Shown: in pieces, positions 6,818 through 24,961 of the stretch
Position numbering within the stretch: the stretch's first letter is position 1
Layout: each line of letters starts with the position of its first letter
DNA from: Lachnospiraceae bacterium
GTDB lineage: Bacteria > Bacillota > Clostridia > Lachnospirales > Lachnospiraceae
Assembly (NCBI GenBank): GCA_024403515.1
Contig: JAKSRS010000002.1
Location: 22,388 to 86,387, forward strand
Direction: 5' to 3'
Length of the DNA: 64,000 nt
The notes under the pieces: generated by a model
Database searches by the model: none
What the model was told of the DNA's origin: nothing
The model's input: the letters and a program-made list of their open reading frames with translations, nothing else
Program-made: the position numbers and the translations under genes

Positions 6818-6824
6818 GTAGGAT

Positions 6825-8117: not shown

Positions 8118-8118
8118 G

Positions 8119-8529
8119 ATGACTTTTGATATCGAGCAAGCTAATAGAGGTCTTATGACTCTGAGTTTCATATTTGCAAAATGCAATTATGGAGCAACTG
8201 ACATGATATGGATATACAAAAAAGGTGAAAGTGACGTTTTGGAAAAATGCATTGCTTTCGCTGATGAAAAAATGAAGAAGGAAAGAGCAGAAAGAATAAT
8301 ATTGCTTACAGATGACGATGAAGTAGATGTCTTTCAAGAATTCATATGCAAGGTTATGTGCAGCGAGCAAGATATCGAAGATTTGATAGCCTGGTATATG
8401 GTTGGACATCCATATAACAACATAATGATTATTTCGTTAATCTACCCTGAGGGAAGAAATGGAAGAAAATGGATTGGCAAAGGGTATTCGTTCGAATCAA
8501 TATGTAAACATGGGCTATTGAGGATATAG
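8119..8529 (+). CDS. Hypothetical protein (136 aa), small partner of module copy 2
   Basis: ATG at 8119 after a GAGGTG RBS; CSEQDIEDLIAWY...NNIMIIS...PEG...IGKG aligns with copy 1 CSQKELDALMAYY...SNIIVAS...PFG...IGKNG. Confidence 0.7.
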   Translation: MTFDIEQANRGLMTLSFIFAKCNYGATDMIWIYKKGESDVLEKCIAFADEKMKKERAERIILLTDDDEVDVFQEFICKVMCSEQDIEDLIAWYMVGHPYNNIMIISLIYPEGRNGRKWIGKGYSFESICKHGLLRI

Positions 8530-8531
8530 AA

Positions 8532-9800: not shown

Positions 9801-9820
9801 TTTTTGGAGGAATAAAGAAA

Positions 9821-11416
9821 ATGATTAGTGTGATTATTCCGGTTTACAACGGTGAATTAACCTTGAAAAGAGCAATCGACTCAATTCTTAGGCAAACATA
9901 TGAAGATTTTGAATTGATTATAGTTAATGATTGTTCGACTGATAATACTGAAAGTGTATGCCAGGAGGCCGCAGAAAACGACAGCCGCATTATCGTAATA
10001 AACAATACTTCAAATGTGGGTCAAGGAGAATCGCGAAATATCGGACTAAGAAAAGCAAAAGGAGAATATATCTATTTTTGTGACTCAGATGATTACGCTG
10101 AAGATAAGATATTAGAGGTGTTGTTGGATAAAATGATGAGTGCAGATGTCGATATAACATGCTGTGACTACTGGCAATATAACTGGAGAGCAGACATTAG
10201 ACAGTATGAAAAAATACTAATCTGTAGCGAGTGTATTGATGATGACGAAATACTGACAATTGATAAACGACCGGATATGCCAGACTTTTTTCCTTGCATT
10301 ATGTGGAATAAACTTTATAAGAAGGAAGTGTTCCAAGAGATAGAATTTCCTAGAGAAAAATTATTCTTTGAGGATTTTTATGTGAATTGTATGGCTATGC
10401 TAAAAAAGTATAGATTCTTATATTCGCATCATGTTTTATACCACTATTTTGCTTCTAATGAAAATAGCAGTAATAGCAATGCTAATGTTAAAAAGATGAC
10501 TGATGACTTGAAAATAATATTTAAGCAATTAGATGAACATTTCCGAACATCAGAAAACTACGAAAGTATAGCATGCGCATTTATGAATCATGCTAGAAGG
10601 TCTTTGAAATACCATCTGTCGAAGACAGATAATACTGATAGATTGTTGAATGAGCAAGCAATTAATCGAAGTATAGAAGAGTATTTTGGACAAACATACA
10701 CCATATACAACACTGATACAAATATCTATGCATTTGGAAGTTTTAATGTTCGTCGAGTTTTACAGTTATTGCCATATAAAGCTCAGCACATTTCCTATTC
10801 AAAAATCGATAGTATGATAAAAGATACTAGCATGCTTGAGGAAGTAAAAGTAATAGGACGAAATCCTTTCCGTACGAGACTTTTAGATATAGATATCAAT
10901 CATAATATTGTGGATATATGGGGCGCAGAGAAAAAAGATGAATATTTGATTTTGGATCTTTTAGACGAGAGAATGAAAACAATTGTTTTCAATAATCGTG
11001 TTATAACGGAGAATGAGTTTTTTGACGAATATTCTTATAGAAATTGTGTCCATTATGAGGAAATAGAGAGTGGACCCGAAGAATGGAAAGAATCTGTTCA
11101 TAAATTTGCAGAATGTCTACGAACTATGTTCGACGAAAAAAAGATTATTTTGATTAAAAATAGGATGTCAAGGGGATATGGTTTCTTTAAGCAGGAATGC
11201 ACATTTAACGAAATTGATATCATCGATAGTACAAATGAGATGATAGCGGAAAAAGAACAGTTTTTGCTAGAAGAGTTGAAGGATATTCAGGTAATAGAAA
11301 TCCCGGAGAAATTGAACTATACGTACTGCAGACACAGTTTTGGAACGAGACCGTTTTACCATAATTATCGATGGTACTATTATGTTGCAGAGGAAATAAG
11401 GAAGAGGATTAATTAA
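9821..11416 (+). CDS. GT2 glycosyltransferase fused to a C-terminal DUF6270-like domain
   Basis: ISVIIPVYN, VNDCSTD, RNIGL, FCDSDD (DxD), WNKLYK; C-terminal AFGSFNVR...YLILDLLDER; GGAGG RBS before ATG 9821. Confidence 0.85.
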   Translation: MISVIIPVYNGELTLKRAIDSILRQTYEDFELIIVNDCSTDNTESVCQEAAENDSRIIVINNTSNVGQGESRNIGLRKAKGEYIYFCDSDDYAEDKILEVLLDKMMSADVDITCCDYWQYNWRADIRQYEKILICSECIDDDEILTIDKRPDMPDFFPCIMWNKLYKKEVFQEIEFPREKLFFEDFYVNCMAMLKKYRFLYSHHVLYHYFASNENSSNSNANVKKMTDDLKIIFKQLDEHFRTSENYESIACAFMNHARRSLKYHLSKTDNTDRLLNEQAINRSIEEYFGQTYTIYNTDTNIYAFGSFNVRRVLQLLPYKAQHISYSKIDSMIKDTSMLEEVKVIGRNPFRTRLLDIDINHNIVDIWGAEKKDEYLILDLLDERMKTIVFNNRVITENEFFDEYSYRNCVHYEEIESGPEEWKESVHKFAECLRTMFDEKKIILIKNRMSRGYGFFKQECTFNEIDIIDSTNEMIAEKEQFLLEELKDIQVIEIPEKLNYTYCRHSFGTRPFYHNYRWYYYVAEEIRKRIN

Positions 11417-11417
11417 T

Positions 11418-13124
11418 ATGAACGTTTTGGTGTTAACTCATTTAGATGCAACTAATTATTCAATAGCTCAGATTGTTCGTGAGATGATTGCACGTGGGCA
11501 TCGGGTAGAAGCATACGGGAGATTTACTGATGAACATAATATAAAGATGTTTGAAGATCTCATTGAAGTTCATCAGTTATCTGAATTGACAGATGATCAT
11601 ATAAATGAATTTGATTTCATTTTTTCTGCTATAGATGTTATTGACAGAGTACGCAACATAAAGAAGTATATTTTTTGCTATAATTTTCTGTTTTGTGGCA
11701 ATTTAATTGCCGATTGCGGTGATTTTATGTTTACGCAATGCGACAACAGAATGCTGGAGTACTCAGAAGAATGCGCTACTATGGCGATAGGAAATCCGAA
11801 GTTTACAGAGATGGTGACAGACAAAAAGTCGAGCCATAAGCAATTTTTGTTCATCGATAGTGGTCATTACCCATTCGGAATCGAAGGAAGGGTAATCATT
11901 GCAAATATTCTGTTGAATATTGCGAGAACATATACAGATTATAGATTGGTTATAAAGCCTCGTTTTCTCGTAGGAGATAAAAATGTAACTCATAGAAACG
12001 ATGACCACATATATAATGTGATTGAGCGTGAGGCGAATGGAAATATACCAGAAAATCTTATAATGCTCCAAGAACATTTGGATATGAACCAATTAATTGA
12101 TGCCAGCGATTTAGTACTTTGTTTATATACTACAGCTTATATTGATGTCATTTTGCGAAACAAAAAGCTGATAATAATCGACGGGCTACCCAGCGAAGAA
12201 ACTTTCGATCAAAGATATGAAACTATATGGAAAAAGCAGAGAAGTGTGTTGGCTGATAGCGGGTGTATGTGTCACTATTCACAGGTGATGAATCATATGC
12301 CTAATGGCTTTTGTGCTACCGATGAAAGTATTAATCGTGTGGTGAAATATAAAGGGGATGCCGCAAGACGAGGGGTAAGCGCAATGGAATATGTGTGGGA
12401 CGAGTATTTGCGGAAAGGTCTATTCCCTTCAATTAAGAACCATATTTTCGAGAATGTAAATGTTAAACTTGAAGTCGATCCCGAACTGAATTGGGAACGA
12501 ATAATAACAAAAAGATATAAGAACAAACTCAGGTACAGAAGCAGATATATAGATTATGTGTCTGCAGATGTAGCCAAAAAGCCATTCATGAAAATGATAG
12601 ATGAATTGGAAGACAGGGGGTTGATTTCTCCGTATACAATAAACGAGACTATCCGATTAGTTGATTATTACAAAAATGAACTTTGGATAAAGAACAAAGA
12701 AGCGCTATGGGATGACGCTATTAATCAGTCTTCTGTAGTACAGGCATTATTCGAAAACCATAAATATGATGAACTGAAGCAAATAGAGGAAAAAGACATA
12801 GAATGCCAAAGTCAGTTTTACTACTTTATGGGAAGAGTCATGTGTGATGAAAAGAAATATGATAAAGCTATTTCCTTTTTTAAAGACTTTTTGAAAGCGT
12901 CTCGGGAGAAACCCTATGCTCAATTTTGGGTAGATCAAACAAGCAAGCAGGTCTCTGGTGAATATTTTATGGGATATGCTTATTATATGCTGAAAGAGTA
13001 CGAAGAGGCATATAGAAGGTTTGAAATATGTGAAGAACTTACTGATAATTGTCACAATATGGCTGCAAAACATATGAAAGAAATTGAACAAATATGGAGT
13101 AGCACGGGCCATACAGCTGGTTAG
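11418..13124 (+). CDS. Putative GT-B glycosyl/phosphotransferase with C-terminal TPR-like helices
   Basis: MNVLVL...RGHRVE N-lobe; LVIKPR and LIDASDLVLCLYTTAYIDVILRNKKLI C-lobe; YYFMGRV...YDKAISFF and YFMGYAYYMLKEYEEAY TPR-like repeats. Confidence 0.55.
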   Translation: MNVLVLTHLDATNYSIAQIVREMIARGHRVEAYGRFTDEHNIKMFEDLIEVHQLSELTDDHINEFDFIFSAIDVIDRVRNIKKYIFCYNFLFCGNLIADCGDFMFTQCDNRMLEYSEECATMAIGNPKFTEMVTDKKSSHKQFLFIDSGHYPFGIEGRVIIANILLNIARTYTDYRLVIKPRFLVGDKNVTHRNDDHIYNVIEREANGNIPENLIMLQEHLDMNQLIDASDLVLCLYTTAYIDVILRNKKLIIIDGLPSEETFDQRYETIWKKQRSVLADSGCMCHYSQVMNHMPNGFCATDESINRVVKYKGDAARRGVSAMEYVWDEYLRKGLFPSIKNHIFENVNVKLEVDPELNWERIITKRYKNKLRYRSRYIDYVSADVAKKPFMKMIDELEDRGLISPYTINETIRLVDYYKNELWIKNKEALWDDAINQSSVVQALFENHKYDELKQIEEKDIECQSQFYYFMGRVMCDEKKYDKAISFFKDFLKASREKPYAQFWVDQTSKQVSGEYFMGYAYYMLKEYEEAYRRFEICEELTDNCHNMAAKHMKEIEQIWSSTGHTAG

Positions 13125-13129
13125 AAAAT

Positions 13130-14245
13130 ATGATGAAGAAGTTACCGTTTTCGTTCTTTGATATTTTGGTTGATGGTGTAGACGTGTGGTTTGTTCACAA
13201 CACGTTGCCTGTACTTATTCATGGCAATATTACCTCGGATGTGTATCATATAGAAACTGTTCTTCCATTGGCTTGGGGGAATGGCTTTGCTGCATATGGT
13301 TGTGTAAAAAGATATTTAAATACTATTATTATCGCGCCTAAATCCACACCATGGTTATTGTTGTATGATATTGAAACTAAAAATATAGAAAAAATAGAAG
13401 TAGACTACAAATGTATGGTGGGGTTAGGAACCTATAACTTGTTTGATAAGATGTATATTGTAGATAAACATGCTTATCTGATACCGGGAAGGTATCCATC
13501 AATTGTAAAATTGGACTTAGAAACAAGACAACTTGAATACATTGAAGTTTGTAGTTCAAGTTGGCTTGAATCATTGAATCGAAATAAATTCCTTTTTTAC
13601 AATTCAATCCTATTAGATCGGCATATATATGCTCCGTGTTATCAAACGGGAGATATGATGAAGTTCTCCATTGATAGTGAAGACTATGAGTTGATGCCAT
13701 ATATAAATGGCGCATCATTAATTGCTGTAGCAGAATCAAAACGAGGACTAATTTGTGCGTGCAAAAATAAAACATTAATGGTTGGGAAAGATACTATTAA
13801 ACTTCCAAGTGATTTTGATTCGAATATTAATTTTTTGGTGGTTTATGGTGACAATGTTTATGTTATACCAATTAATGGGAAAGCTATTTTTTATTACAAT
13901 ATGGTTCAGTGCAAGTGGACTGAACTAGTAAAACTTCATAAAGAATATAACGCTCTATCAAGGAAAAACAGAGAATATGGAGCTGATTTTTGGAGTGTTC
14001 ATTGTGCGAATAATAGTATTTTTTTGTCATCAAATCATGAAGGAACATTAATGGTTATTGATATGATTTCTAATGAAGTAATATCAAAAACTTTGGAATT
14101 ACCCCTTGATGATTTAAACATGTTGTTTCAGTCAGAACCTGCAGATATAGTAAATGAGACTCGACAGAACAGTTTACAGAATTATATAAAAAAAATTGCT
14201 TATTTTGCAGAACTAAGAAGATATGTGTTTGAGGGAGAAGACTAA
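13130..14245 (+). CDS. Hypothetical protein, probable beta-propeller
   Basis: Repeated beta-rich blades (IIIAPK..LLLYDIET; YLIPG..IVKLDLET; VYVIP..IFYYN). Confidence 0.55.
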   Translation: MMKKLPFSFFDILVDGVDVWFVHNTLPVLIHGNITSDVYHIETVLPLAWGNGFAAYGCVKRYLNTIIIAPKSTPWLLLYDIETKNIEKIEVDYKCMVGLGTYNLFDKMYIVDKHAYLIPGRYPSIVKLDLETRQLEYIEVCSSSWLESLNRNKFLFYNSILLDRHIYAPCYQTGDMMKFSIDSEDYELMPYINGASLIAVAESKRGLICACKNKTLMVGKDTIKLPSDFDSNINFLVVYGDNVYVIPINGKAIFYYNMVQCKWTELVKLHKEYNALSRKNREYGADFWSVHCANNSIFLSSNHEGTLMVIDMISNEVISKTLELPLDDLNMLFQSEPADIVNETRQNSLQNYIKKIAYFAELRRYVFEGED

Positions 14246-15267
14246 TGAAATATGGATTATACTACTTTAAAGAAACACATAATATAGGGGATGACATATG
14301 GGCGTTTGCGCAGAGTTTGTTTTATCCGCACATTGATTACTTGATTGATAATCAGTCGGTTTACAAATTTCAGACAGATCAAGACGAGATAGTAGCCACA
14401 ATTATAAGCGCATTTGTAGAATCATGGAACAATGAAATACACTTCCTACTTCCAGAATCGATATTACCGTTTTTTATTGGGTCATATTTCAAGCCAACAA
14501 TGTGGGACTATCTGAAAAATGAAGCAATGGTAAGATATTTGAGACAATTTCAGCCCATTGGTGTAAGAAGTACAAGTAATGTAGAGCGATTAAGTGCAAT
14601 GGGGGTGAATTCTTACTTTTCGGGATGCATTTCGTTAACATTACCAAGTTTTAAAAATGATTGTACAAAGAATAAGTATATATGTTGTGTTGACGTTAAT
14701 GATGAAGTGGTCCAGTACGTTAAAGATAAAACCAGAGGGGAAAACATAGAAATAAAAAGGTTTTCGCACGATGTTTTACGGTGGAACGAGACAGAAAAAG
14801 AAAAATATTTTTCGATGAACCAGATAGAGAGATTTGAACTGGTGAAAGAATATATTGATTTATATGCTAACGCCCATTGCGTAGTTACGTCAAGATTACA
14901 TTGCGCATTACCTTGCCTTTCGCAAAAAACACCCGTCCTACTAGTGTTGCCCAGAGATGGGAGGGGCGTATCTGACATGGAAGATCGAATGAGCAGTTAC
15001 TATTCGATGCTTCACGTATGTTATGACGATAACTTCGCTAATCATACAGTAGAATATGACTTTAAACAGCCTCCGTTAAACAGTGATGATTATGTAAAAT
15101 ATAGAGACTTGCTAAATAACAATATACAGCAGTTTATTAATCAATGTGAGAATGGAGAAATAAATAAAACATACGATAGTCGAATTCAGGATACAAGAAA
15201 GAATGAATATATAGATTTTCTATTGCAGATGATAGATGATTTGAAGAAAGAAAAAATAACAAAATAA
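14245..15267 (+). CDS. Polysaccharide pyruvyl transferase family protein
   Basis: HNIGDDI, IGVRS, SGCISLTL, VVTSRLHCALPC. Confidence 0.85.
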   Translation: MKYGLYYFKETHNIGDDIWAFAQSLFYPHIDYLIDNQSVYKFQTDQDEIVATIISAFVESWNNEIHFLLPESILPFFIGSYFKPTMWDYLKNEAMVRYLRQFQPIGVRSTSNVERLSAMGVNSYFSGCISLTLPSFKNDCTKNKYICCVDVNDEVVQYVKDKTRGENIEIKRFSHDVLRWNETEKEKYFSMNQIERFELVKEYIDLYANAHCVVTSRLHCALPCLSQKTPVLLVLPRDGRGVSDMEDRMSSYYSMLHVCYDDNFANHTVEYDFKQPPLNSDDYVKYRDLLNNNIQQFINQCENGEINKTYDSRIQDTRKNEYIDFLLQMIDDLKKEKITK

Positions 15268-15303
15268 AAAGATATTAGACAAAAATGAAAGGATGAAGGA
15301 ACT

Positions 15304-16083
15304 ATGAAAGTATTAGGAGTGATAGCTTCGAGATATGGATCATCAAGATTGCCGGGAAAGGCGTTAAAGGATATATGTGGAAGGCCTATGATTTGGTGGG
15401 TGTATCATAGCATAGAGGGTGCTGAGGGACTGGATAAATTGATTGTAGCAACTGATGACCAAAGAATTGTTGATGCTTGTAACGAGTATGGAATTGAAAC
15501 AGTCATGACTCGGTCTGATCATAGAGAGGCCGCTAATCGTTTGCAAGAAGTTTCGCAAACTATTGAGGCGGATTATTATATCCAAATTAATGGGGATGAA
15601 CCTCTTTTATCGCAAGACTATATAAAAGCTATTATTCCAAGAACAATTGACCCAAGCATAGAATGTGGTGCAAATCTGATTACTAAAATGACTAATCCGG
15701 TTGAAGTAATGGATCCATCCAATATAAAAGTAGTTTTTGACGATAATTACAACACTTGTTATATGTCGAGAACGCCTATTCCTTATCCATATAGAAGTAT
15801 AGAATTCGATTACTATAAACACATAGGTATTATAGGGTATACCAAGAAAATGCTTGATTTCTATGCAACACATGCACCAGGTAAGTTTGAAAGAATTGAG
15901 GGAATAGCTACTTTACGATTTACAGACTACAGAAAAGAACTGAAATGTATCGAAGTTAAGGATATAGACTCTTTGTCTGTTGATACCCAGATGGATTTAG
16001 ACCGCATACGTGAAGTTATACGTGTGAAATTAGACGCAGGGGAATTGCAAAAGCATTTAGAGTTAATGAATAAAGGAAAGTAG
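15304..16083 (+). CDS. KdsB-like CMP-ulosonate synthetase (cytidylyltransferase)
   Basis: SRYGSSRLPGKAL, VATDD, NGDEP, VKVVFD, KHIGI, SVDTQMD. Confidence 0.88.
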   Translation: MKVLGVIASRYGSSRLPGKALKDICGRPMIWWVYHSIEGAEGLDKLIVATDDQRIVDACNEYGIETVMTRSDHREAANRLQEVSQTIEADYYIQINGDEPLLSQDYIKAIIPRTIDPSIECGANLITKMTNPVEVMDPSNIKVVFDDNYNTCYMSRTPIPYPYRSIEFDYYKHIGIIGYTKKMLDFYATHAPGKFERIEGIATLRFTDYRKELKCIEVKDIDSLSVDTQMDLDRIREVIRVKLDAGELQKHLELMNKGK

Positions 16084-16086
16084 TAT

Positions 16087-17712
16087 ATGATTAGTTTGCT
16101 GGATTGTACTTTGAGAGAGGCTCCAATTGAAAATATGTGTATGGGTGAACATACAAGTGGCAGATTATTATCAGGGCTGTCTAAGGCGGATGTTGATATT
16201 ATTGAATGCGGATACTTGAAAAACGCGTCGCACATAAGTGGAAGCACAATCTTTAACACTGTGGAAGAAATCAGTTCGTTTATAGGTTCCAAAAAGAGTA
16301 ATGTATCGTATGTTGCACTAGTGGATTATGGGCGTTACGACTTGAAGTATCTTTCAGATAATCCAGGCAATAGTATAGATGGGATTAGAATCTGTTTCAA
16401 AAAAGGCGAACAAAAAGATGTTATTTCATACGCAGAAGAAATAATCAAGCGAGGTTATAAAGTATTCATTCAGCATGTAGACACTGCTGATTATTCAGAC
16501 CAGGAAATATTGGAATTTATCGGTTGGATAAATACTATAAAGCCATATGCGTATTCGATTGTTGATACTTTTGGTGCAATGTATACTGATGATGTGAGGA
16601 GAATTGCACATTTAGTGGATTATAATCTTGATAGGAGCATTAAATTAGGATTTCATGGACACAATAACCTTTTGATGGCCAATGCTAATGCTCAAGCCTT
16701 GGTTAGTGAATTGTTTCATAAAAGAGATGTTATTATAGATGCCTCTCTTCTTGGATGCGGTAGGGGCGCGGGAAATGCGAATACCGAACTAATAGCATCT
16801 TTTTTGAATTCACGATATCAAACAAACTACGATTTGAATGTACTTTTGGATATTATTGATGATGATATGCCTTCGTTATCAAAACTTTGTTCGTGGGGAT
16901 ATAGCATGCCTTATGTTATTTCCGGACTGCATTCTACACATGTGTTTAACGTGAATTACTTGTTAAAAAAGCATAATATTAAATTGAACGATTTACGTAG
17001 TATTATTGAAAGTCTGGATGGCATTCAAAGGAAAAAATATGATTATGAACTGTTAGATGAGTTGTACATGAACTATTTTGGAGAGCGTGTTGACGATTCA
17101 GAAGCCAGATTTTATATGCAGGGCATATCGAATAGATCAATTTTATTGCTTGCACCGGGAAAAACATTGGTAAAAGAAAGAGACAAAATAGAATCATTTA
17201 TTGAAAAAAAGAAGCCATTTGTCATAGCTATAAATGGTAAAATGGATAATTTTAATGAAGATGCTGTCTTTTTTGGGAGTTGCAAACGATATGACTACTA
17301 CACCGAGACATACAAGAATGCTACAGCAAAATGTATTGTTAGCTCGAACATAAAGAGGGAGAGTGGAGAAGAAGAACTAATTGTTGATTTTCAAACGATA
17401 GCGAAAAAGGGATGGGTTAATTATGACTCGTCAGCTGTTCTTCTAATTAGATTTTTGCTGCAGAATAAATGTAAAGATATATATATTGCGGGAATGGATG
17501 GTTTTTCGAGAAATAAAAGTGAAAACTATTTTTCGGAAACATTTGTAAATGATGTTTTACCGGATAACCTGATTTTGTTGGATAAGGAATTAAGAGAAAT
17601 GTTAACAGAATTAAGAGAAGAATCGCATATGTGTGGTGGTAAAATTAGACTAGTCACACATAGCCATTATGAAGGCGTGTTCGACATATTTGATGGAGAC
17701 GAGGATATGTGA
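16087..17712 (+). CDS. DRE-TIM metallolyase (4-hydroxy-2-oxovalerate-aldolase-like) with extra C-terminal domain
   Basis: LLDCTLRE, IIECGY, SIVDTFG, GFHGHNN, GCGRGAGNANTE; C-terminal LLLAPGKT...IYIAGMDGF. Confidence 0.85.
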   Translation: MISLLDCTLREAPIENMCMGEHTSGRLLSGLSKADVDIIECGYLKNASHISGSTIFNTVEEISSFIGSKKSNVSYVALVDYGRYDLKYLSDNPGNSIDGIRICFKKGEQKDVISYAEEIIKRGYKVFIQHVDTADYSDQEILEFIGWINTIKPYAYSIVDTFGAMYTDDVRRIAHLVDYNLDRSIKLGFHGHNNLLMANANAQALVSELFHKRDVIIDASLLGCGRGAGNANTELIASFLNSRYQTNYDLNVLLDIIDDDMPSLSKLCSWGYSMPYVISGLHSTHVFNVNYLLKKHNIKLNDLRSIIESLDGIQRKKYDYELLDELYMNYFGERVDDSEARFYMQGISNRSILLLAPGKTLVKERDKIESFIEKKKPFVIAINGKMDNFNEDAVFFGSCKRYDYYTETYKNATAKCIVSSNIKRESGEEELIVDFQTIAKKGWVNYDSSAVLLIRFLLQNKCKDIYIAGMDGFSRNKSENYFSETFVNDVLPDNLILLDKELREMLTELREESHMCGGKIRLVTHSHYEGVFDIFDGDEDM

Positions 17713-17713
17713 A

Positions 17714-18370
17714 ATGGCAAAACTTAAATATGAAGGAATTCTATTTGATTTAGACGGAACATTACTTGATACTAGAGAAGGTGTAAAAGACGCAGTTGCT
17801 TTGACACACAAAGAATTGGGTATGGAGATTCCTAATGAAGAAACTCTGCAACGCTTTGTAGGACCTCCGATGCAAGATTCATTTGTAAGAGAGTATGGTT
17901 TTTCAACCGACGAGGCACAGCATGCTGCTGATATATTTAGAAGTACTTATATGCATAAAAGCCTATTTTTGGCAGAATTATATCCTGGTGTTATCCAACT
18001 ATTGGGCATATTAAGAGCAGAAGGATACAAAATTGGTGTTGCGACATATAAGAGAGAGGATTATGCAATCCGATTGTTGGATCATTTTGGGATTTCAGAT
18101 TATTGCGATGTTATTCATGGCGGAGATAATTTTAATCAACGTAAAAAATCGGACATAGTTAAAATGTGCATCGCCGCAATGAATATAAAAGGTTCTGGTC
18201 AAGTTATTTTAGTGGGTGATAGTGAATACGATGCTATTGGGGCGGAAACGGCCGGGATTCCTTTCTTCGGATTAACGTCAGGTTATGGTTTTAAAGATGA
18301 ATCGTATTACGATAAATATAAAGCTGTGGGTTGGGGAAAATGTATAATGGAATTGATAAACTTCTTGTGA
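17714..18370 (+). CDS. HAD-superfamily phosphatase (phosphoglycolate-phosphatase-like)
   Basis: FDLDGTL, VATYK, K, LVGDSEYD motifs; start refined to MAKLKY. Confidence 0.9.
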   Translation: MAKLKYEGILFDLDGTLLDTREGVKDAVALTHKELGMEIPNEETLQRFVGPPMQDSFVREYGFSTDEAQHAADIFRSTYMHKSLFLAELYPGVIQLLGILRAEGYKIGVATYKREDYAIRLLDHFGISDYCDVIHGGDNFNQRKKSDIVKMCIAAMNIKGSGQVILVGDSEYDAIGAETAGIPFFGLTSGYGFKDESYYDKYKAVGWGKCIMELINFL

Positions 18371-18403
18371 TGAAAGTTGTTTATCGGCGAAGTAGGTGAA
18401 AAG

Positions 18404-18808
18404 ATGATGGAGAGAAAACTTGCGATTTTCGGTGGGGGGAACGAAGCCGCAAAATATTATACTGATAATATGGTAGTTAATATTAGGCGGGAAAAGTTGG
18501 ATACATTAAGAAAGTTCATTTCTGACGGGAAAAGAATACTGCTTATAGATAGCAATGTTTTTTTCCCATCATTTAAGGAAAGGCTTTCTGAACATTTGGA
18601 AAGCCAGCACGCAAAAGATGATTTTATCATTATTGAGTCTGATAGTCCAATCTATGATACTGCTGTACGTTTGTATAACTGCTATGAGTATGATAACAAC
18701 ATTCGACTACTGACTAATTCCTCCGGATATGCGTCTTTAGTGAATTACTATTTGACTGGAATTATTACTGAAAAGCAATTGATAGAAATGATTGTTCATG
18801 GTTTATAA
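18404..18808 (+). CDS. Hypothetical protein (134 aa), small partner of module copy 3
   Basis: ATG 18404 after an AGGTG RBS; C-terminal LYNCYEYDNNIRLLTNS...G..TEKQLIE resembles copies 1 and 2; 2 nt upstream of the large paralog. Confidence 0.65.
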   Translation: MMERKLAIFGGGNEAAKYYTDNMVVNIRREKLDTLRKFISDGKRILLIDSNVFFPSFKERLSEHLESQHAKDDFIIIESDSPIYDTAVRLYNCYEYDNNIRLLTNSSGYASLVNYYLTGIITEKQLIEMIVHGL

Positions 18809-18810
18809 GT

Positions 18811-20067
18811 ATGGAAAAGAAACTGTATTCTGAAATGTCTGCTAATGTCGAGAAACTTAATGATGAAATCCAGTTGAATGCAAATAATCTTTTTGTATTT
18901 GGATATTGTAAGGCATCGATGGAACTTATAGACTTGCTTGCTGAGAAAAATATAGAAATTAAAGGGATTCTTGATAATAGTGAGGATAAGCAGTTAAGAA
19001 ACTACAAAGGTGCTAAGGTCTATTACCCAGATGATATACTAAAACTTGTTCCAAAAAGTGACGAGAAAAACTCTGTAGTACTAGTTGTATCCAGATTTTA
19101 TGAGACTATGGCGAAGCAACTCCGAGGATTAGGATACAAGGGGAGAATTGAGAAAATAGTTAATTACAATACTTATTCTGATTATTCGCTCTCTGATGAG
19201 ACATTAAATCGGATGATAGGGAGAGAACAAAGTGGTGAAAGACTAATCAAGGAATTAGAAAGCAAATATCAAAACGCTTTTAAAGTGTTCTTCCCATTTA
19301 ACGCGCTAGGTGATGTTTATATAGCAATGTCGTATTGGTACGCGTTTGCTAAATTGAAAGGCATAGTTAATCCGGTGTTTTGTGTTCCTTCAAAGGCATT
19401 GAAGGAAGTGGTTCTTTTATTTGGAAACTTTCAGGTTGAGGTGTACAATCAGGAAAATTTGGATTCAATGGTTCAAGCTGCAATCTGCATGCGGGATGAT
19501 AGATTTTTTATTGCACATCATGATAGGCCTTACGTTGTTTATCTTCATAAGGCATTATATTTTAAGATGATTCCGCTGGATATGATTTATCGCTGTGGTG
19601 TTTATGGATTATCTGTGGATGCAAAACCAATGATACCACGCATAAACAATAAGGTGTACAAAGAAATAGAGAAGATTCCTAAGGGGAAGGCAGTAATCTT
19701 TTCTCCTTATGCAAAATCAATTACAACATTGTCAGAAAATGTATGGAACGATGCAGTTAACTATTACAAATCTATAGGATATAAATGTTACACAAATGTT
19801 GTTGGAGATGAACAACCCCTAAAAAATACAGAGGCTATTTCACCATCTATATCTGAGATTAGGGCTGTGGTAGAGCAGGCGGGATTGTTTGTCGGAATAC
19901 GTAGTGGTCTTTGTGATGTCATAAGAGAAGCAAAGGCGAAGAAAATAGCATTATATCCAGATTATAATTACTGTGATACAAAATGGAAAGCTATTGATAT
20001 ATATTATATTGATCAGTTTGATTACAATATTCTAGCTAATGAGAATATAAAGTGGGAGATACTTTAA
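18811..20067 (+). CDS. GT-B fold (GT9-like) putative glycosyltransferase, copy 3
   Basis: LFVFG..ILDNS; PFNALGDVY, VIFSPYAKS, GYKCYTN, FVGIRSGLCDVI. Confidence 0.65.
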   Translation: MEKKLYSEMSANVEKLNDEIQLNANNLFVFGYCKASMELIDLLAEKNIEIKGILDNSEDKQLRNYKGAKVYYPDDILKLVPKSDEKNSVVLVVSRFYETMAKQLRGLGYKGRIEKIVNYNTYSDYSLSDETLNRMIGREQSGERLIKELESKYQNAFKVFFPFNALGDVYIAMSYWYAFAKLKGIVNPVFCVPSKALKEVVLLFGNFQVEVYNQENLDSMVQAAICMRDDRFFIAHHDRPYVVYLHKALYFKMIPLDMIYRCGVYGLSVDAKPMIPRINNKVYKEIEKIPKGKAVIFSPYAKSITTLSENVWNDAVNYYKSIGYKCYTNVVGDEQPLKNTEAISPSISEIRAVVEQAGLFVGIRSGLCDVIREAKAKKIALYPDYNYCDTKWKAIDIYYIDQFDYNILANENIKWEIL

Positions 20068-20241: not shown

Positions 20242-20904
20242 ATGAAATTTGAACTAAACGCCTCAATGATGTGCGCAAACTATGGTCACTTGGCCAGGGA
20301 AATAGAAAATCTTGAGAAGGGTGGAATCGATTCTTTCCATATCGATATCATGGATGGTCGATATGTACCTAACTATGCTATGTCGCTAAATGACATGAAG
20401 TATATCGCTCATGCGACCAAGAAGCCCTTGGATGTGCATCTTATGATTGAGCACCCCAATACCAACATAAAACTTTTTCTTGAGAATCTTCGTAAGGGCG
20501 ATACCGTATACATTCATCCTGAAGCTGAGTATCATCCATCGACAACACTTCAGAAGATCATAGATGCGGGTATGGTTCCCGGAATTGCAATCAATCCCGG
20601 CACAAGTGTTGAAACGGTAATGGAAATGCTTCAGATTGTTGATAAGGTTCTTGTAATGTCTGTAAATCCCGGTAGCGCGGGTCAGATGTATCTTCCTTAT
20701 GTCGGAAGTAAGGTCAAGAAGCTTATCAGCTTAAAAGAGGAACTTGGATTTAAACTCTACTGGGACGGCGCATGTTCAGCCGATAAGATTTTGGAGTTTG
20801 CACCTCTTGGTGTAGATGGTTTTGTCCTTGGTACTACCATATTGTTTGGAAAGAAAGAATCTTACGCAGATATCTTAAAGAATGTTCGCGAACTGAAGAT
20901 TTAG
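20242..20904 (+). CDS. Ribulose-phosphate 3-epimerase family (Rpe/AlsE-like)
   Basis: FHIDIMDG, LDVHLM, VMSVNPG..GQ, WDGA metal/phosphate motifs. Confidence 0.9.
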   Translation: MKFELNASMMCANYGHLAREIENLEKGGIDSFHIDIMDGRYVPNYAMSLNDMKYIAHATKKPLDVHLMIEHPNTNIKLFLENLRKGDTVYIHPEAEYHPSTTLQKIIDAGMVPGIAINPGTSVETVMEMLQIVDKVLVMSVNPGSAGQMYLPYVGSKVKKLISLKEELGFKLYWDGACSADKILEFAPLGVDGFVLGTTILFGKKESYADILKNVRELKI

Positions 20905-20946
20905 TAAGGCACATAAAGGGAATTTTCTTTTGAAAGAGGAATATAA

Positions 20947-21633
20947 ATGGCAATAGGAATTTTACTTTCCGGTGGAACCGGAGAGAGAGCGGGCTTTGAC
21001 CTTCCGAAGCAGTACATGATGGCTGGCGATAAGATGGTCATTAGCTACTGCATTGAAACGCTTGAGGCAAGCGAGGATATAGAAGCTTACATTATTGTTT
21101 CGGATCCTTCCTGGCAGGACGAGCTAAAGAAAGTTATCGGTGATAGTAATAAGTTTGAAGGCTTTGCTAATCCCGGCAACAACCGTCAGTTATCGATTTA
21201 TAACGGGCTTAAAACGCTTGAGGACATTGCAGATGAAGATACAATCGTTATGATTCATGATGCTGCAAGACCTATGCTAACGGTGGCTGACATTAAAACT
21301 TATGTTGAAGCCTGCTGTGGCCATGATGGAGTACTTCCTGTGCTTCCTATGAAGGATACTCTTTATTATAGTGAAAGTGGTTTGGAGGTTTCGGGGCTTT
21401 TAGACAGAAGCAAAATCTACGCCGGTCAGGCGCCCGAATTCTTTTCTTTTGACAAGTACTTAGATGCCAATGAAAGCATTTTCATGGATCTAAATAAGAT
21501 AAATGGCTCGACCGAGCCTGCGATTATGGCGGGGATGGATATCTGCATGGTTCCCGGCAATGAAATGAATTTTAAGATTACTACAAAGGCGGATTTTGAG
21601 CGCTTTGCAGATATCGTAAGTAAAAGGGGTTAA
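20947..21633 (+). CDS. IspD/TarI-family alditol-phosphate cytidylyltransferase
   Basis: LLSGGTGER..PKQY, IHDAARP, GQAPE, KITT. Confidence 0.9.
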   Translation: MAIGILLSGGTGERAGFDLPKQYMMAGDKMVISYCIETLEASEDIEAYIIVSDPSWQDELKKVIGDSNKFEGFANPGNNRQLSIYNGLKTLEDIADEDTIVMIHDAARPMLTVADIKTYVEACCGHDGVLPVLPMKDTLYYSESGLEVSGLLDRSKIYAGQAPEFFSFDKYLDANESIFMDLNKINGSTEPAIMAGMDICMVPGNEMNFKITTKADFERFADIVSKRG

Positions 21634-21636
21634 TTT

Positions 21637-22704
21637 GTGAAAGCCTGGACTTTGAATTCTGTTAAGGATATTTCATATGGTGATGTCAGTAAGCCTGTTC
21701 CTTCTAAGGGAGAGGTTTTAGTTAAGGTTGCTGCTTGCGGGATTTGTGGTTCGGATATTCCAAGAATTTACCAAAACGGCGCCCACAAAATGCCCCTAAT
21801 TCCCGGCCATGAGTTTTCAGGAAGGGTTGAGGCTGTCTCGGATCCTTGTGATAACGATCTTTTAGGCGCAAAGGTTGGTGTTTTTCCGCTGATTCCCTGT
21901 ATGAAATGTTCATCGTGCCAAAAGAAAATGTACGAGATGTGTAAGTCCTATAGTTACCTCGGTTCAAGATGCGATGGTGGATTTGCGGACTATGTTTCGG
22001 TTCCTAAGTGGAATCTTATAAAACTTCCTGAAAATGTGTCATTTGAGGCGGCTGCTATGCTTGAACCAATGGCTGTTTCGGTTCATGCTATGAGAAAGGC
22101 TGACATTAAAGAATCCGATAGAGTCCTTGTATGGGGGGCCGGAACGATTGGGTTACTACTTACTATGTTTTTAAAGGATGCAGGGGTTGAAAGACTTATT
22201 CTTGTTGGAAATCATGATTACCAAAGGGATTATGCGACTCTTGTAGGGATTTCTCGTGAAAACTTTATTAATGTAAGTGACCGTGATCCGATAGAAATGA
22301 TTAATAAAGCAACTGATGGAGAAGGCGTGGATGTCTTCTTTGAATGTGTTGGTAAAAGCGAGATATTAAAAGATGCCATTAATGTTACTTCGATGGGCGC
22401 AAGCATTGTAACTGTTGGAAATCCCTATGGTGATGTTTCTTTAGCAAGAGATGATTACTGGAACATATTAAGGCATCAGCTTAAAATCTTTGGAACCTGG
22501 AATTCTTCCTTCTTAGGAGAAGAAGACCCGGATTCTTTGAATGATTCCTGGCACTATGTTTTAAAAAGGCTTGAAGAAGGGGCCATCCACCCTGAAAGAC
22601 TTATTAGTCACAGGCTTGATAAATCTGAGTTAGCAAAAGGTCTTGAGATAATGAGGGACAAAAGTCAGCCATACATTAAAGTAATGACGACGTGGGAGAA
22701 ATAA
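21637..22704 (+). CDS. Zn-dependent alditol-phosphate dehydrogenase (GatD/TarJ-like MDR)
   Basis: GTG start; CGICGSD, GHE, C..C..C...C structural Zn site, LEP, GAGTIG. Confidence 0.88.
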   Translation: MKAWTLNSVKDISYGDVSKPVPSKGEVLVKVAACGICGSDIPRIYQNGAHKMPLIPGHEFSGRVEAVSDPCDNDLLGAKVGVFPLIPCMKCSSCQKKMYEMCKSYSYLGSRCDGGFADYVSVPKWNLIKLPENVSFEAAAMLEPMAVSVHAMRKADIKESDRVLVWGAGTIGLLLTMFLKDAGVERLILVGNHDYQRDYATLVGISRENFINVSDRDPIEMINKATDGEGVDVFFECVGKSEILKDAINVTSMGASIVTVGNPYGDVSLARDDYWNILRHQLKIFGTWNSSFLGEEDPDSLNDSWHYVLKRLEEGAIHPERLISHRLDKSELAKGLEIMRDKSQPYIKVMTTWEK

Positions 22705-22708
22705 TAAT

Positions 22709-24961
22709 TTGGCACACGATTATTCATATTACGAAGATGAAGTGAGAGACAACTTCTACATACCGAGTATGGGAAAGCGTTCATGGGCTATGCAGATGGA
22801 CGTTTTAGATAAGGTGCGCGAAATTTGCGATAGACATGGCCTTAAGTGGTTTGCGGACTACGGAACTCTTCTTGGCTGCATTCGCCATGGTGGTTTCATT
22901 CCTTGGGATGATGATCTTGATATCTGTATGTTAAGAGATGATTATGATAAATTCATCGAGGTGGCGGCATCTGAGCTTCCGTCTACATATTTGATTTTAG
23001 ATTCTTTTACTGATTTCAGGCACACAAACTTTGTAACCAGAGTTGTTAACTGTGGAGAAATCTCCTTTTCGAGTGATTTCCTGGCTGAAAACAACGGTTA
23101 TCCTTTTGTAAGCGGAATTGATATATTCCCCCTTGATTATCTTTATCCTGATAATGACAGGGAAGAAGAAAGAAAGAAACGCGCCAAGGACTTATTCGAC
23201 TACGCTGAACGTGTTAAATCTGATAAATCCATAAGTGCACATGAAGCATATTCCACTGCACGAAAGATTGCAGGCGTTGAACTTGATAAGTCGATTCCCA
23301 TTGAAGCTGCTTTTATAAGGGCAATAACTAAGATTTATAAAGAGGCGCCCAAAGAAGGTGCAACTCATGTCGGTTCCATGTTCTTTTGGACACGTTATAA
23401 CTTTCAAAAGTATAATATTAAATTTTTTGAAAAGGAGGCCATAATGCCATTTGAGGACGGCTTTGTTAACGTTCCTCTTGGATATACAAGTAAACTTCAA
23501 ACTGATTATCGTGGTTGGGAAAAGATTTACAAACAAGGCGGTATGCATGAGTATCCCTGCTATGGATCCCAGGAAACGATTCTTGAAAAGCACTATAAAG
23601 GTAAGCTTCCCTATAGGTATTATTATGATGAAGCTATCCTTAGTGAGGATACTGACCGCGAAAAGAGTAATAAAGATAAATGTCTTGAGTATTTAAGTCT
23701 TATGCTTAAGGCTCACACATATTTTATGGGCATGTACGAGACCGGCAAGATAGAAGAGGCTGCAGAAATCTTGCAGGCTTGCCAGAACATGGCCATCTCA
23801 GCCGGAAGTCTGATTGAATTTTGTAATGGTGAAGGCAGCGATGAAGTTAAACTTTTAGAAAGCTACTGCGAGGCGATTTACGCTATTCACTCCAAACTTT
23901 TAGGAGGGGTGAATCTTTCTATTACAGACACTGATATAGATTCTTTAAACCAGCTTATTAACTATGTCTTTAACAGTATTCAAAATAACTTTTTGAAAAA
24001 GACCATAGTTTTTATACCATATAAGGCTTCAGATTTTTCATATATTCGTGGAATGTATAATCGTTACATAAATGATCCTTTGTGGAATGTAAAGGTTATG
24101 CCGGTTCCATATTTTTACAAAAATTTCGACGGAACCAACATTGAAGAACATTTCGAATTCGATGAGTTTCCTAAAGACATTACGCTTACAAATTATAACG
24201 AGGTTGATCTGGCGTCCCTGCATGCCGACGTAATAGTCACCATGAATCCTTTTGATGAGTTTCATAGTGCTGTTACGCTTTATCCTTTCTTTTATTCCAA
24301 AAACCTCAAGGCCAAGACTGAAAAGCTGATTGTAGCCTATAATCTTTCTTTTGACGCACCTTCATTAACGGATGAAAAGATGTGCTCAAACTGCTCGCAG
24401 TTTGTCATCTCATCCGGTGTAATGCGTGGCGATGAGGTGGTGGTAAAATCGCAGGCCTGGAAGGACTTTTTCATAGGTCTATTGGATGATAAGTGTGGAA
24501 CTATTACCCATGATATCTGGGATGAGAAGATTGTTGTGATGGAAGAAACTGATTGCACGTTTAATCAGTGCGATGACGGAACTTCTGATGCGCATAATGG
24601 TCTCAAGGAGCTTCTTTTCTACATAAACTTTTCGGAGTTTTTCCTTGGACCTACGAAAATGATGGATAAGATTTCGCGCGTTTTAGACGATTTTGAGAAG
24701 AATTCTCATGATATGAGTTTTATCTGGAAGGCTGAAGAAACTTTACTTGATAACGTAAAACTTGCCTGTCCTGAGCACTACGATAGATTTAAAGGTCTTG
24801 TCGACAGATTCAAGGCTATTGAAAATGCCAGATGGGATGAAGGTCGTTTTAACGAGTTGGATTTTACAAATATACGAGGTTACTATGGAAACAAGGGGCT
24901 TTACATGCACCTTTGTGAGGAACGTCACTTACCGATTATGTTACTAAATGCTGACGTTTAA
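22709..24961 (+). CDS. LicD-family phosphotransferase with long C-terminal extension
   Basis: TTG start; YGTLLGCIRHGGFIPWDDDLDI, IDIFPLD; C-terminal helical region plus IVFIPYK...MPVPY...VTMNPFD domain. Confidence 0.88.
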   Translation: MAHDYSYYEDEVRDNFYIPSMGKRSWAMQMDVLDKVREICDRHGLKWFADYGTLLGCIRHGGFIPWDDDLDICMLRDDYDKFIEVAASELPSTYLILDSFTDFRHTNFVTRVVNCGEISFSSDFLAENNGYPFVSGIDIFPLDYLYPDNDREEERKKRAKDLFDYAERVKSDKSISAHEAYSTARKIAGVELDKSIPIEAAFIRAITKIYKEAPKEGATHVGSMFFWTRYNFQKYNIKFFEKEAIMPFEDGFVNVPLGYTSKLQTDYRGWEKIYKQGGMHEYPCYGSQETILEKHYKGKLPYRYYYDEAILSEDTDREKSNKDKCLEYLSLMLKAHTYFMGMYETGKIEEAAEILQACQNMAISAGSLIEFCNGEGSDEVKLLESYCEAIYAIHSKLLGGVNLSITDTDIDSLNQLINYVFNSIQNNFLKKTIVFIPYKASDFSYIRGMYNRYINDPLWNVKVMPVPYFYKNFDGTNIEEHFEFDEFPKDITLTNYNEVDLASLHADVIVTMNPFDEFHSAVTLYPFFYSKNLKAKTEKLIVAYNLSFDAPSLTDEKMCSNCSQFVISSGVMRGDEVVVKSQAWKDFFIGLLDDKCGTITHDIWDEKIVVMEETDCTFNQCDDGTSDAHNGLKELLFYINFSEFFLGPTKMMDKISRVLDDFEKNSHDMSFIWKAEETLLDNVKLACPEHYDRFKGLVDRFKAIENARWDEGRFNELDFTNIRGYYGNKGLYMHLCEERHLPIMLLNADV

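Follow-up and report, generated by a model that had tools for sequence, protein, structure and literature searches.

A candidate gene cassette for a CMP-activated ulosonic acid other than Kdo in a Lachnospiraceae bacterium

Introduction

The textbook routes to Kdo, the sialic acids and other nonulosonic acids all begin with a PEP-dependent synthase of the KdsA/NeuB type, and genome mining for ulosonic acids uses this synthase as a marker. The CMP-Kdo pathway (KdsD, KdsA, KdsC and KdsB; KpsF and KpsU in capsule loci) combines the formation of a C–C bond to a 3-deoxy-2-ulosonate phosphate with a HAD phosphatase and a CTP_transf_3 enzyme. The KDN route of Bacteroides thetaiotaomicron (KDN-9-P synthase, the KDN-9-P phosphatase BT1713 and CMP-KDN synthetase) and the vertebrate Neu5Ac 9-phosphate route (NANS, NANP and CMAS) likewise run from a synthase through a HAD phosphatase to a cytidylyltransferase and supply surface glycans with an ulosonic acid activated by CMP; their synthases are PEP-dependent members of the NeuB family and their cytidylyltransferases are of the NeuA type.

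Here we analyse a window (the whole stretch of DNA under study, 64,000 nt) from a gut or rumen Lachnospiraceae bacterium in which three genes appear to follow the same plan with a different first enzyme. In place of the PEP-dependent KdsA the locus has a fusion protein with a DRE-TIM aldolase of pyruvate type, unrelated in fold to the NeuB-family synthases and probably pyruvate-using; the phosphatase is of the HAD-IA type and not KdsC, KdsD is missing, and the Kdo C5-OH contacts of the cytidylyltransferase are replaced. The host, unlike the Gram-negative bacteria with the CMP-Kdo pathway, is a monoderm without LPS or Kdo transferases. The cassette is classed as a widespread variant of the Kdo/sialic-acid type of pathway, and we favour, if cautiously, the reading that the trio works as a single biosynthetic cassette, whose product is a CMP-activated 3-deoxy-2-ulosonic acid similar to Kdo but distinct from it.

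Results

Gene layout

The three open reading frames are tightly packed and co-directional on the + strand, and were recovered at exactly 15304–18370, where the original prediction had placed them. ORF 1 (15304..16083, 259 aa) encodes a KdsB/KpsU-like CTP:sugar-acid cytidylyltransferase of signature class II, ORF 2 (16087–17712, 541 aa) an aldolase fusion protein and ORF 3 (17669–18370, 233 aa) a HAD-IA phosphatase. All three families had been named correctly, but a second domain of ~200 aa in the aldolase protein had been overlooked.

ORF 3 matches HAD_2 (E 1.7e-33); its translation contains DLDGT (the DxDxT nucleophile motif) and GDSEYD (motif IV, GDxxxD), and the phosphoglycolate-phosphatase equivalogs match it below cut-off (107 vs 180). 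The candidate start is the ATG at 17714, 1 nt past the aldolase stop codon (17710–17712) and with GAGGA 8 nt upstream. Judging by this ribosome-binding site and its spacing, the gene probably begins there, and the likely extent of the phosphoglycolate-phosphatase-like enzyme would be 17714..18370 on the + strand (~218 aa), with no 44-nt overlap with the aldolase gene. A promoter and terminator scan performed no better than on shuffled sequence.

The KdsB-like cytidylyltransferase

ORF 1 matches Pfam CTP_transf_3 (E 8.5e-42), and in the PDB it comes closest to E. coli KpsU (1GQ9, E 2.6e-42), with ~45% identity over the full length. Among the NCBIfam models it passes the KdsB subfamily model NF003952 (211 bits vs a cut-off of 193) and stays under the cut-off of the kdsB equivalog TIGR00466 (147.3 vs 155.2 bits). 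In KpsU numbering R10, K19, D98, R155, H172, R204 and D225 are retained, with the CTP-binding P-loop R10/K19 and the Mg-binding Asp98 and Asp225 invariant across 43 cassette homologues. The substitutions are Q96N, Y176I, E201A and Q202T: at the Kdo-contact positions the Gln of QGDEP has become N and the Tyr of KHxGIY has become I, and the EQ of LEQLR is replaced by A and T. The motif departures quoted in the original prediction (IASRY..GKAL, NGDEP and EGIATLR) are all found in the translation and in the alignment with E. coli KpsU.

The residues Q98 and Y185 of E. coli KdsB are reported to hydrogen-bond the C5-OH of Kdo (PMC12199768). The replacements at Gln, Tyr and EQ are conserved inside the window's cytidylyltransferase class, and the sister class I enzymes keep the canonical Kdo-contacting residues. 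Because both C5-OH ligands and the EQ of LEQLR are replaced, the comparison points to a sugar other than Kdo as the substrate handled in the window's clade, in agreement with the earlier proposal that the product is not canonical Kdo. A literature search found no paper on this cytidylyltransferase class or on the aldolase family.

The host genome (98% complete) gave no matches over cut-off to KdsA and KdsD, whose presence elsewhere in the genome had been suggested as a check, and none to WaaA or KpsS/C, which transfer Kdo, so the genome lacks the canonical means of making and transferring Kdo. This outcome, like those of the other tests run, agrees with the main reading of the original prediction. 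KdsD was also not found in 14 class I genomes. No PEP-dependent synthase domains (DAHP_synth_1, NeuB) occur in the island around the cassette; the host genome has one NeuB, on another contig (C1).

The aldolase fusion protein

The N-terminal part of ORF 2 (16087..17091, + strand) is a DRE-TIM (HMGL-like) metal-dependent aldolase domain, and Pfam HMGL-like covers residues 111–256 of the protein. The closest solved structure to ORF 2 is 3DXI (E 1.3e-20, 25% identity), a structural genomics entry for the N-terminal domain found in ‘putative aldolase’ BVU_2661 from Bacteroides (Phocaeicola) vulgatus; according to its title, the Bacteroides protein likewise continues beyond this domain in a C-terminal part, and it has Arg-Asp where the window's clade has Arg-Glu. 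The AF2 model (pLDDT 89.5) has fold matches to DmpG, HsaF, IPMS and HMG-CoA lyase, and the domain resembles 4-hydroxy-2-oxovalerate aldolases in sequence and in fold. The DRE-TIM layout is present, with the Arg-Asp/Glu pair following strand 1, a strand-2 Glu and the HxH metal ligands on strand 7; R10, E11 (Asp in other clades), E40, H190 and H192 are invariant in the family. Arg83, Arg101, Arg213 and Arg226, invariant as well, would suit anionic substrates. The active sites of the aldolase, the KdsB-like enzyme and the HAD phosphatase all look intact.

With the class II pyruvate aldolases DmpG, BphI and HsaF the domain shares the TIM barrel, the HxH metal site, the catalytic Arg and the GxGxxAGN motif. 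The similarity is remote (E ~1e-7), and the 4-hydroxy-2-oxovalerate aldolase equivalog TIGR03217 scores 57 bits against a cut-off of 286. Those enzymes serve aromatic catabolism, whereas the window aldolase has a biosynthetic glycan context, extra invariant Arg/Lys residues and a fused C-terminal domain; the locus has no partner acylating (acetaldehyde) dehydrogenase. The catalytic His21 of DmpG/BphI is not conserved (the aligned position is Ile/Pro, the motif being read by eye), and the mechanism may therefore differ. One more HMGL-like gene lies 6 kb upstream of the window, where it comes after the trp operon; it has no connection with the cassette.

The C-terminal domain (17095..17712, + strand, ~205 aa) has a predicted Rossmann-like, MptE/TPK/CstII-type phosphonucleotide-binding fold. 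It was modelled alone because Foldseek with the whole protein was dominated by the TIM barrel. The separate AF2 model (pLDDT 91.9) has as its top Foldseek match SteA (9hmz; E 4.8e-4, prob 1.0, with a weak TM-score of ~0.47), which is also the only, and weak, PDB profile match (E 0.044). A Pfam search with the domain alone gave no match at E up to 5, MptE-like PF01973 included; hhalign against the neighbouring MptE-like proteins gave 83% probability (E 9e-6). The predicted fold class is that of MptE-like/DUF115 and CstII-type proteins (Maf flagellin glycosyltransferases, GT42 sialyltransferases) and of SteA, but the GxGPS motif of MptE-like proteins is APGKS/T here. The assignment of nucleotide binding rests on weak similarity; in the preferred reading this module would most likely bind cytidine nucleotides and have a regulatory or substrate-holding role. 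An SIS-type isomerase in the KdsD slot was set aside as speculation, its sole support being a GmhA match at rank 36 (E 0.03, TM-score 0.28).

Conservation of the cassette

The KdsB-like gene lies at most six genes from the aldolase gene in 43 of 83 related loci, mostly directly upstream. In three of three independently sampled cases a KdsB-like homologue precedes an aldolase gene with a HAD-type gene behind it, the latter split into two small ORFs in one case, and P0015 is a natural aldolase–HAD fusion. Given these counts and the fusion, the linkage of the trio is not due to chance. Among the three independently sampled loci, one is a classic teichoic-acid locus with TagD/TagF/TagGH. Campylobacter coli capsule loci have the order cytidylyltransferase–aldolase–HAD too, next to kpsC/kpsS, and so do loci in Gastranaerophilales (Melainabacteria), Akkermansia, Lacrimispora and Butyrivibrio, and in many Clostridia.

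The aldolase family has >4,900 matches and at least 335 species representatives. Its tree shows three clades, each with 100/100 support, which track phosphatase type and cytidylyltransferase class. The sister-clade phosphatase belongs to the true KdsC family (TIGR01670, 164 bits vs a cut-off of 107), and the parallel to KdsA/KdsC/KdsB drawn in the original prediction is strengthened by a conserved cassette in which such a phosphatase takes the HAD slot. Near-identical aldolases in sister genomes pair with cytidylyltransferases of class II or III, so what the aldolase makes cannot simply be read off from the cytidylyltransferase signature. In the third clade, set within CDP-hexose (RfbF, RfbH/E1, SDR) branched-sugar loci, the CTP_transf_3 enzyme is missing in most loci; the family is thus not tied to CMP activation as such. 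Elsewhere the aldolase accompanies ThDP acetolactate-synthase/YerE-like enzymes or AroB-related sugar-phosphate cyclases (TIGR04425), and these two contexts and the KdsC/KdsB-like one, independent of each other, all call for a 2-oxo-acid or 3-deoxy-ulosonate-phosphate product.

L-ribulose-5-phosphate 4-epimerase (AraD) is encoded in 13 of 19 loci of the window's clade, which suggests a pentulose-phosphate-derived product. The cassette AraD passes NF006047 (342 bits vs a cut-off of 257) and is the sole AraD homologue of the genome in six Gastranaerophilales-type genomes; in the host genome AraD lies away from the cassette, on C55. The 6- or 7-carbon acid given earlier as an example found no support; the AraD often borne by the cassette points to a product derived from a pentulose 5-phosphate (8-carbon or branched). 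MptE-like proteins and TagF–MptE fusions are further frequent neighbours.

The surrounding island

The cassette is carried by a low-GC (~0.34) glycan island (6407..20067, + strand) recognised from the GC profile, ORFs, Pfam and synteny, of which 8095–20067 is syntenic with a Lacrimispora locus (L006). The island holds three paralogous gene pairs (~140 aa + ~420 aa, the three ~420-aa genes being paralogous to one another), a GT2-DUF6270 gene, genes for a 568-aa DUF6716/TPR protein and a 371-aa protein, and a pyruvyl-transferase-like gene. PDB sequence searches gave no match for the neighbouring 430-, 568- and 371-aa proteins. The island genes are candidate transferases, which we infer to be tied to the cassette. 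Downstream (20242..24961, + strand) Pfam identifies Rpe, TarI-like, TarJ-like and LicD genes, a CDP-alditol-phosphate module; TarI/TarJ or LicD also adjoin the cassette in locus L007 and in most class I loci. As a parallel, the ceramide phosphoglycerate pathway of Caulobacter was rejected, its CpgD being an IMPCT-type nucleotidyltransferase that makes CDP-glycerate and not a KdsB homologue.

Discussion

The genes present, the folds of their domains, the retained catalytic residues, the conserved synteny and the lack of canonical Kdo genes are observations; every reaction, the substrate and the product of the cassette are inferred, as follows. The DRE-TIM domain would bind pyruvate on a divalent metal (E11, H190 and H192, with R10) and let its enolate attack the carbonyl of a phosphorylated sugar compound to form a 2-oxo-3-deoxy sugar-acid phosphate, an aldol step that would stand in for the PEP-dependent KdsA/NeuB step. 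The HAD-IA phosphatase would then strip the phosphate, making the reversible aldol step effectively irreversible, and the KdsB-like enzyme would use CTP to attach CMP at the anomeric C2-OH. The island transferases would use the CMP-sugar for a cell-wall glycopolymer, probably one with alditol phosphate too (TarI/TarJ/LicD). In the window's clade L-ribulose-5-P or D-xylulose-5-P is the probable source of the acceptor substrate. A point against is that L-ribulose-5-P is a ketose while the minimal cassette has no recognisable aldose–ketose isomerase.

Four other readings were weighed. The aldolase might act on a nucleotide-linked keto-sugar, with the CstII/MptE-like domain holding a CMP- or CDP-sugar to which the DRE-TIM domain would add a branch derived from pyruvate, after the KdsB-like enzyme and the HAD had made this nucleotide-sugar substrate. 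Such a role would agree with the invariable fusion of the predicted phosphonucleotide-binding-type domain to the aldolase in all three clades, and with the CDP-hexose branched-sugar loci of the third clade; we nevertheless regard it as unlikely, since the KdsC-family and HAD-IA phosphatases and the aldolase–HAD fusion better fit a free phosphorylated aldol product, we know of no DRE-TIM enzyme that acts on nucleotide sugars, and the nucleotide-binding call is itself one of weak similarity.

It is quite unlikely that genuine CMP-Kdo is made here by a non-canonical route, in which the aldolase would join pyruvate to arabinose-5-P from an unrecognised isomerase (possibly the C-terminal domain) and the changes in the KdsB-like enzyme would be neutral drift. 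The whole-length identity to KpsU would fit this route, as would the score for NF003952, on which PGAP-type models would call ORF 1 a CMP-Kdo synthetase, and the sister clade, whose KdsB-like enzyme keeps the Kdo contacts beside a KdsC-family phosphatase. Against it stand the class-wide loss of the C5-OH ligands and of the EQ of LEQLR, the missed kdsB equivalog cut-off, the lack of KdsD in the host and in the class I genomes, and the link of the clade to AraD, that is to L-ribulose-5-P and not to isomerisation of D-ribulose-5-P.

The KdsB-like enzyme might also CMP-activate a neutral 2-ketose (e.g. L-ribulose or D-xylulose freed from the 5-phosphate by the HAD after AraD), with the aldolase fusion in some other role, e.g. 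in transfer or modification. AraD and a sugar-phosphate phosphatase would be enough for free L-ribulose, and we know of no donor for the ketose branches of Campylobacter capsules. These branches are xylulose, fructose and sorbose (PMC10919079), and a published donor for them was not found. This scheme is nonetheless highly improbable: the sugar-acid pocket residues R155, H172 and R204 are kept, a conserved and apparently active pyruvate-type DRE-TIM site would be left without a role, and the sister clade with its KdsC-family phosphatase argues for ulosonate phosphates. A Claisen-type synthase (acetyl-CoA + 2-oxo acid, like citramalate or homocitrate synthase), whose small hydroxy-acid would be phosphorylated, dephosphorylated or cytidylylated as a non-sugar substituent, finds weak sequence and fold matches in homocitrate and isopropylmalate synthases, but can hardly be credited when 4-hydroxy-2-oxovalerate aldolases and 3DXI match best, the hydroxyl that KdsB-type enzymes activate is an anomeric one adjoining a carboxylate, and the cassette has no CoA-related genes.

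Building on the preferred reading, a cassette for a Kdo-like acid, we put forward a more speculative extension that we think possible though doubtful. The fusion of DRE-TIM and nucleotide-binding domains would represent a third class of ulosonic-acid synthases, independent of PEP, which in the window's clade would combine L-ribulose-5-phosphate-derived carbon with pyruvate into an ulosonic acid not yet described (either an octulosonate, L-series or 5-modified, or a 4-C-branched acid via attack on the ketose carbonyl), displayed on teichoic acids and capsules of gut Clostridia, Melainabacteria, Akkermansia and some Campylobacter.

A pyruvate-aldolase route, if true, would escape screens based on the KdsA/NeuB marker, and current pipelines mislabel enzymes of the ORF 1 type as CMP-Kdo synthetase in bacteria without LPS. 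The carriers of the aldolase family include abundant gut commensals and the capsule locus of a food-borne pathogen. The identity of the product would give a cheap chemo-enzymatic route to CMP-activated ulosonic acids, with pyruvate instead of PEP; it would add one or more new acidic sugars to bacterial surface chemistry and would explain part of the cell-wall polymers of Lachnospiraceae.

Gene layout and surrounding island

The three genes of the original prediction are real. Open reading frames for a KdsB-like cytidylyltransferase (15304-16083, 259 aa), a two-domain 'aldolase' (16087-17712, 541 aa) and a HAD phosphatase (17669-18370, 233 aa) follow one another on the + strand. The most likely start of the phosphatase gene is ATG 17714, one base past the stop of the aldolase gene and with GAGGA 8 nt upstream; with this start, the intergenic gaps within the trio would be 3 and 1 bases. 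Genes of the + strand continue without a break across 6407-24961, and the G+C content is ∼0.34 at 6-20 kb vs ∼0.40 in the flanks. The aldolase is present in only three of 25 species of the window's genus, the other two copies being 39-40% identical to that of the window. This patchy distribution, together with the low G+C, marks the locus as an accessory island.

Three paralogous gene pairs, each encoding a ∼140-aa and then a ∼420-aa protein, are located at 6407-8117, 8095-9800 and 18377-20067. The ∼420-aa proteins are 26-28% identical to each other, and none of the proteins of the pairs has a sequence match in Pfam, NCBIfam or the PDB. In a Lacrimispora locus (L006) that is syntenic with 8095-20067, the cassette is likewise flanked by homologous pairs; the pairs are candidate transferases for the CMP-sugar. 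Further island genes encode a GT2-DUF6270 protein, a 568-aa DUF6716/TPR protein, a 371-aa protein without assignment and a pyruvyl-transferase-like protein. Directly after the island (20242-24961, + strand), genes for ribulose-phosphate 3-epimerase (Rpe), an IspD/TarI-like cytidylyltransferase, a TarJ-like Zn-dehydrogenase and a 750-aa LicD-domain protein look like a CDP-alditol-phosphate module. TarI/TarJ/LicD accompany the cassette in further genera too. No separate MptE-like transferase is encoded within the island; the sole protein of the genome passing the Pfam MptE-like model (L093, C44:160425-160922, 107 bits, open frame of 529 aa) is encoded ∼120 kb away from the cassette and may be a Maf-type glycosyltransferase.

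No KdsA, KdsD/KpsF, WaaA or KpsS/C was found in the genome carrying the window (G000; 2.8 Mb, 98% complete). The window is C44:22388-86387 of this genome, and its best hits put it in Lachnospiraceae. A NeuB gene is present at C1:82953-83669. A contig end (L086, C47:1-7700) carries genes for NeuA-like cytidylyltransferase, GT52/polysialyltransferase-like, DUF6056, AlgX-like SGNH, MBOAT and GtrII proteins; this set is a second CMP-sugar system of the genome, and the NeuB gene with the NeuA-like/GT52-like pair is a system apart from the cassette. The L086 NeuA-like enzyme is 60% identical to products of NeuA-like genes adjoining some aldolases. Upstream of the window, a gene for a 323-aa single-domain HMGL-like protein (C44:16132-17103; L085:12133-13104) sits between a complete trp operon, which it directly follows, and a CorA gene; its product shares only 24% identity with the aldolase of the cassette, and its context is unrelated.

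The cytidylyltransferase and its sugar pocket

The first enzyme is a CTP_transf_3 protein (Pfam) whose closest solved structure is KpsU, the E. coli capsule CMP-Kdo synthetase (1GQ9, E 2.6e-42), with an end-to-end alignment. It passes one KdsB subfamily model of NCBIfam (211 bits vs a cut-off of 193) and fails the kdsB equivalog (147 bits vs 155). All three departures from the usual Kdo-synthetase motifs listed in the original prediction were found in it.

In an alignment of KpsU, Yersinia KdsB and 43 homologues linked to the cassette, the residues for the nucleotide and Mg (R10, K19, D98 and D225) do not vary among the 43 sequences, nor do R155 and R204. H172 is retained by most of them, including that of the window, and is absent from classes III-V. 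The sugar-side residues sort the sequences into five or more signature classes. Class I retains Q96, H172, Y176 and E201, as true KdsB does; class II, to which the window's enzyme belongs, has N96, I176, A201 and T202. Gln98 and Tyr185 of E. coli KdsB, equivalent to positions 96 and 176, hold the Kdo C5 hydroxyl; that enzyme does not accept 5-deoxy-Kdo and uses 5-epi-Kdo poorly (PMC12199768). With both equivalents replaced, the predicted sugar pocket of class II differs at the exact site where the Kdo ring is read.

Domains of the aldolase and the phosphatase

The 541-aa protein has two domains, a DRE-TIM barrel (residues 1 to ∼335) and a Rossmann-like domain (∼337 to 541). The barrel has a Pfam HMGL-like match; the top PDB sequence match is 3DXI, followed by 4-hydroxy-2-oxovalerate aldolases, and Foldseek (AF2 pLDDT 89.5) agrees with the sequence-based matches. 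All of 77 sequences share the strand-2 Glu, the catalytic Arg and the HxH metal ligands, and the metal Asp is replaced by Glu solely in the window's clade. Several Arg residues peculiar to this family are also invariant, which would suit anionic substrates.

The C-terminal domain had no Pfam match. Profile-profile comparison relates it to the MptE-like (DUF115) proteins that are encoded beside many cassettes (83%, E 9e-6). SteA was the only PDB protein found with the structural model (pLDDT 91.9; E 4.8e-4), and the only PDB hit of a profile search as well (E 0.044). According to the authors of its structure, the C-terminal domain of SteA resembles the sites where thiamine pyrophosphokinase binds ATP and the sialyltransferase CstII binds CMP (PMC12977500). 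Given these matches and the description by the SteA authors, we call the domain a putative phosphonucleotide-binding-type domain.

The phosphatase belongs to HAD-IA, and both its DxDxT and its GDxxxD motif are intact; its nearest relatives are phosphoglycolate phosphatases, and it scores under their cut-offs.

Three aldolase clades with different partners

The protein collection contains >4900 aldolase homologues, and the aldolase was confirmed in 335 stretches of a one-genome-per-species collection. Blind sampling from the protein search gave three extra KdsB-like homologues, all of them with aldolase and HAD genes directly downstream, and one homologous protein (P0015) is a natural fusion of aldolase and HAD. 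In a maximum-likelihood tree, 82 aldolases fall into three clades, all of them supported at 100/100.

Clade alpha contains the window's aldolase, sister to a Lacrimispora locus. Its gene order is KdsB-like (classes II, III and V), aldolase and HAD-IA, followed by AraD in 13 of 19 loci and often preceded by an MptE-like gene; the sources are C. coli capsule loci adjoining kpsC/kpsS, Gastranaerophilales, Akkermansia, Butyrivibrio, Dysosmobacter and Blautia. In the Campylobacter coli capsule locus (L001-L003), beside kpsC/kpsS, genes for MptE-like, KdsB-like, aldolase, HAD-IA and AraD proteins are followed by those for APS kinase, ATP sulfurylase and a pyruvate-kinase-like protein; this capsule may carry the cassette's sugar and possibly sulfate. 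Three Gastranaerophilales-type pairs of loci (L005/L008, L010/L012 and L011/L009) have near-identical aldolases (branch lengths 0.01-0.08) and otherwise identical cassettes, yet their KdsB-like enzymes clearly differ (class II vs class III).

Clade beta has the order KdsB-like (classes I and IV), aldolase and a KdsC-family HAD-IIIA phosphatase (TIGR01670, 164 bits, cut-off 107), within teichoic-acid loci that also encode TagF-MptE fusions and TarI/TarJ. In clade gamma the aldolase gene lies beside those for a ThDP acetolactate-synthase/YerE-like enzyme, RfbF, RfbH (E1) and SDRs, in some loci also for an AroB-related sugar-phosphate cyclase and an FGGY kinase. Five gamma loci (L024, L029, L035, L047 and L077), where the aldolase adjoins the cyclase (TIGR04425, 344 bits), FGGY kinase and an SDR, resemble a DAHP-synthase/dehydroquinate-synthase pair with the aldolase in the place of the synthase.

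A predicted pathway to a non-Kdo sugar acid

KdsC-type phosphatases, the ThDP enzyme and dehydroquinate-synthase-like cyclases all have 2-oxo acids or 3-deoxy-ulosonate phosphates as substrates, and KdsB-type enzymes require a 2-keto acid sugar. What these contexts would most simply have in common is a DRE-TIM domain that makes a phosphorylated 2-oxo-3-deoxy sugar acid from pyruvate, which in clades alpha and beta would be dephosphorylated and then CMP-activated, in line with the original prediction. The product of the beta cassette may be Kdo or a close analogue, although no KdsD was found in 14 genomes with a class I enzyme in the cassette. The alpha product, that of the window included, should differ in the vicinity of C5 and in the side chain.

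The AraD encoded in the cassettes scores above the threshold of the AraD subfamily model (342 bits vs a cut-off of 257), and six Gastranaerophilales-type genomes have no other AraD homologue; where the cassette of an alpha-clade genome lacks the gene, as in that of the window (C55), AraD is encoded elsewhere. This points to L-ribulose-5-P or D-xylulose-5-P as the alpha precursor. The ketose might be converted to the aldol acceptor by an unrecognised isomerase activity, perhaps of the aldolase C-domain, or its ketone might be attacked directly, giving a branched acid.

No publications on any member of the cassette family were found. In public annotations the first gene appears as CMP-Kdo synthetase, while the second is labelled 'hypothetical', 'aldolase catalytic domain-containing' or '4-hydroxy 2-oxovalerate aldolase'. 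New here are the sorting of the cytidylyltransferase into signature classes, the loss of the C5-OH ligands in class II, the division of the aldolases into three co-evolving clades, the link to AraD and the cyclase and ThDP contexts. The observation behind the original prediction is confirmed, and its interpretation as a non-Kdo sugar-acid pathway is supported at the level of sequence and gene context.
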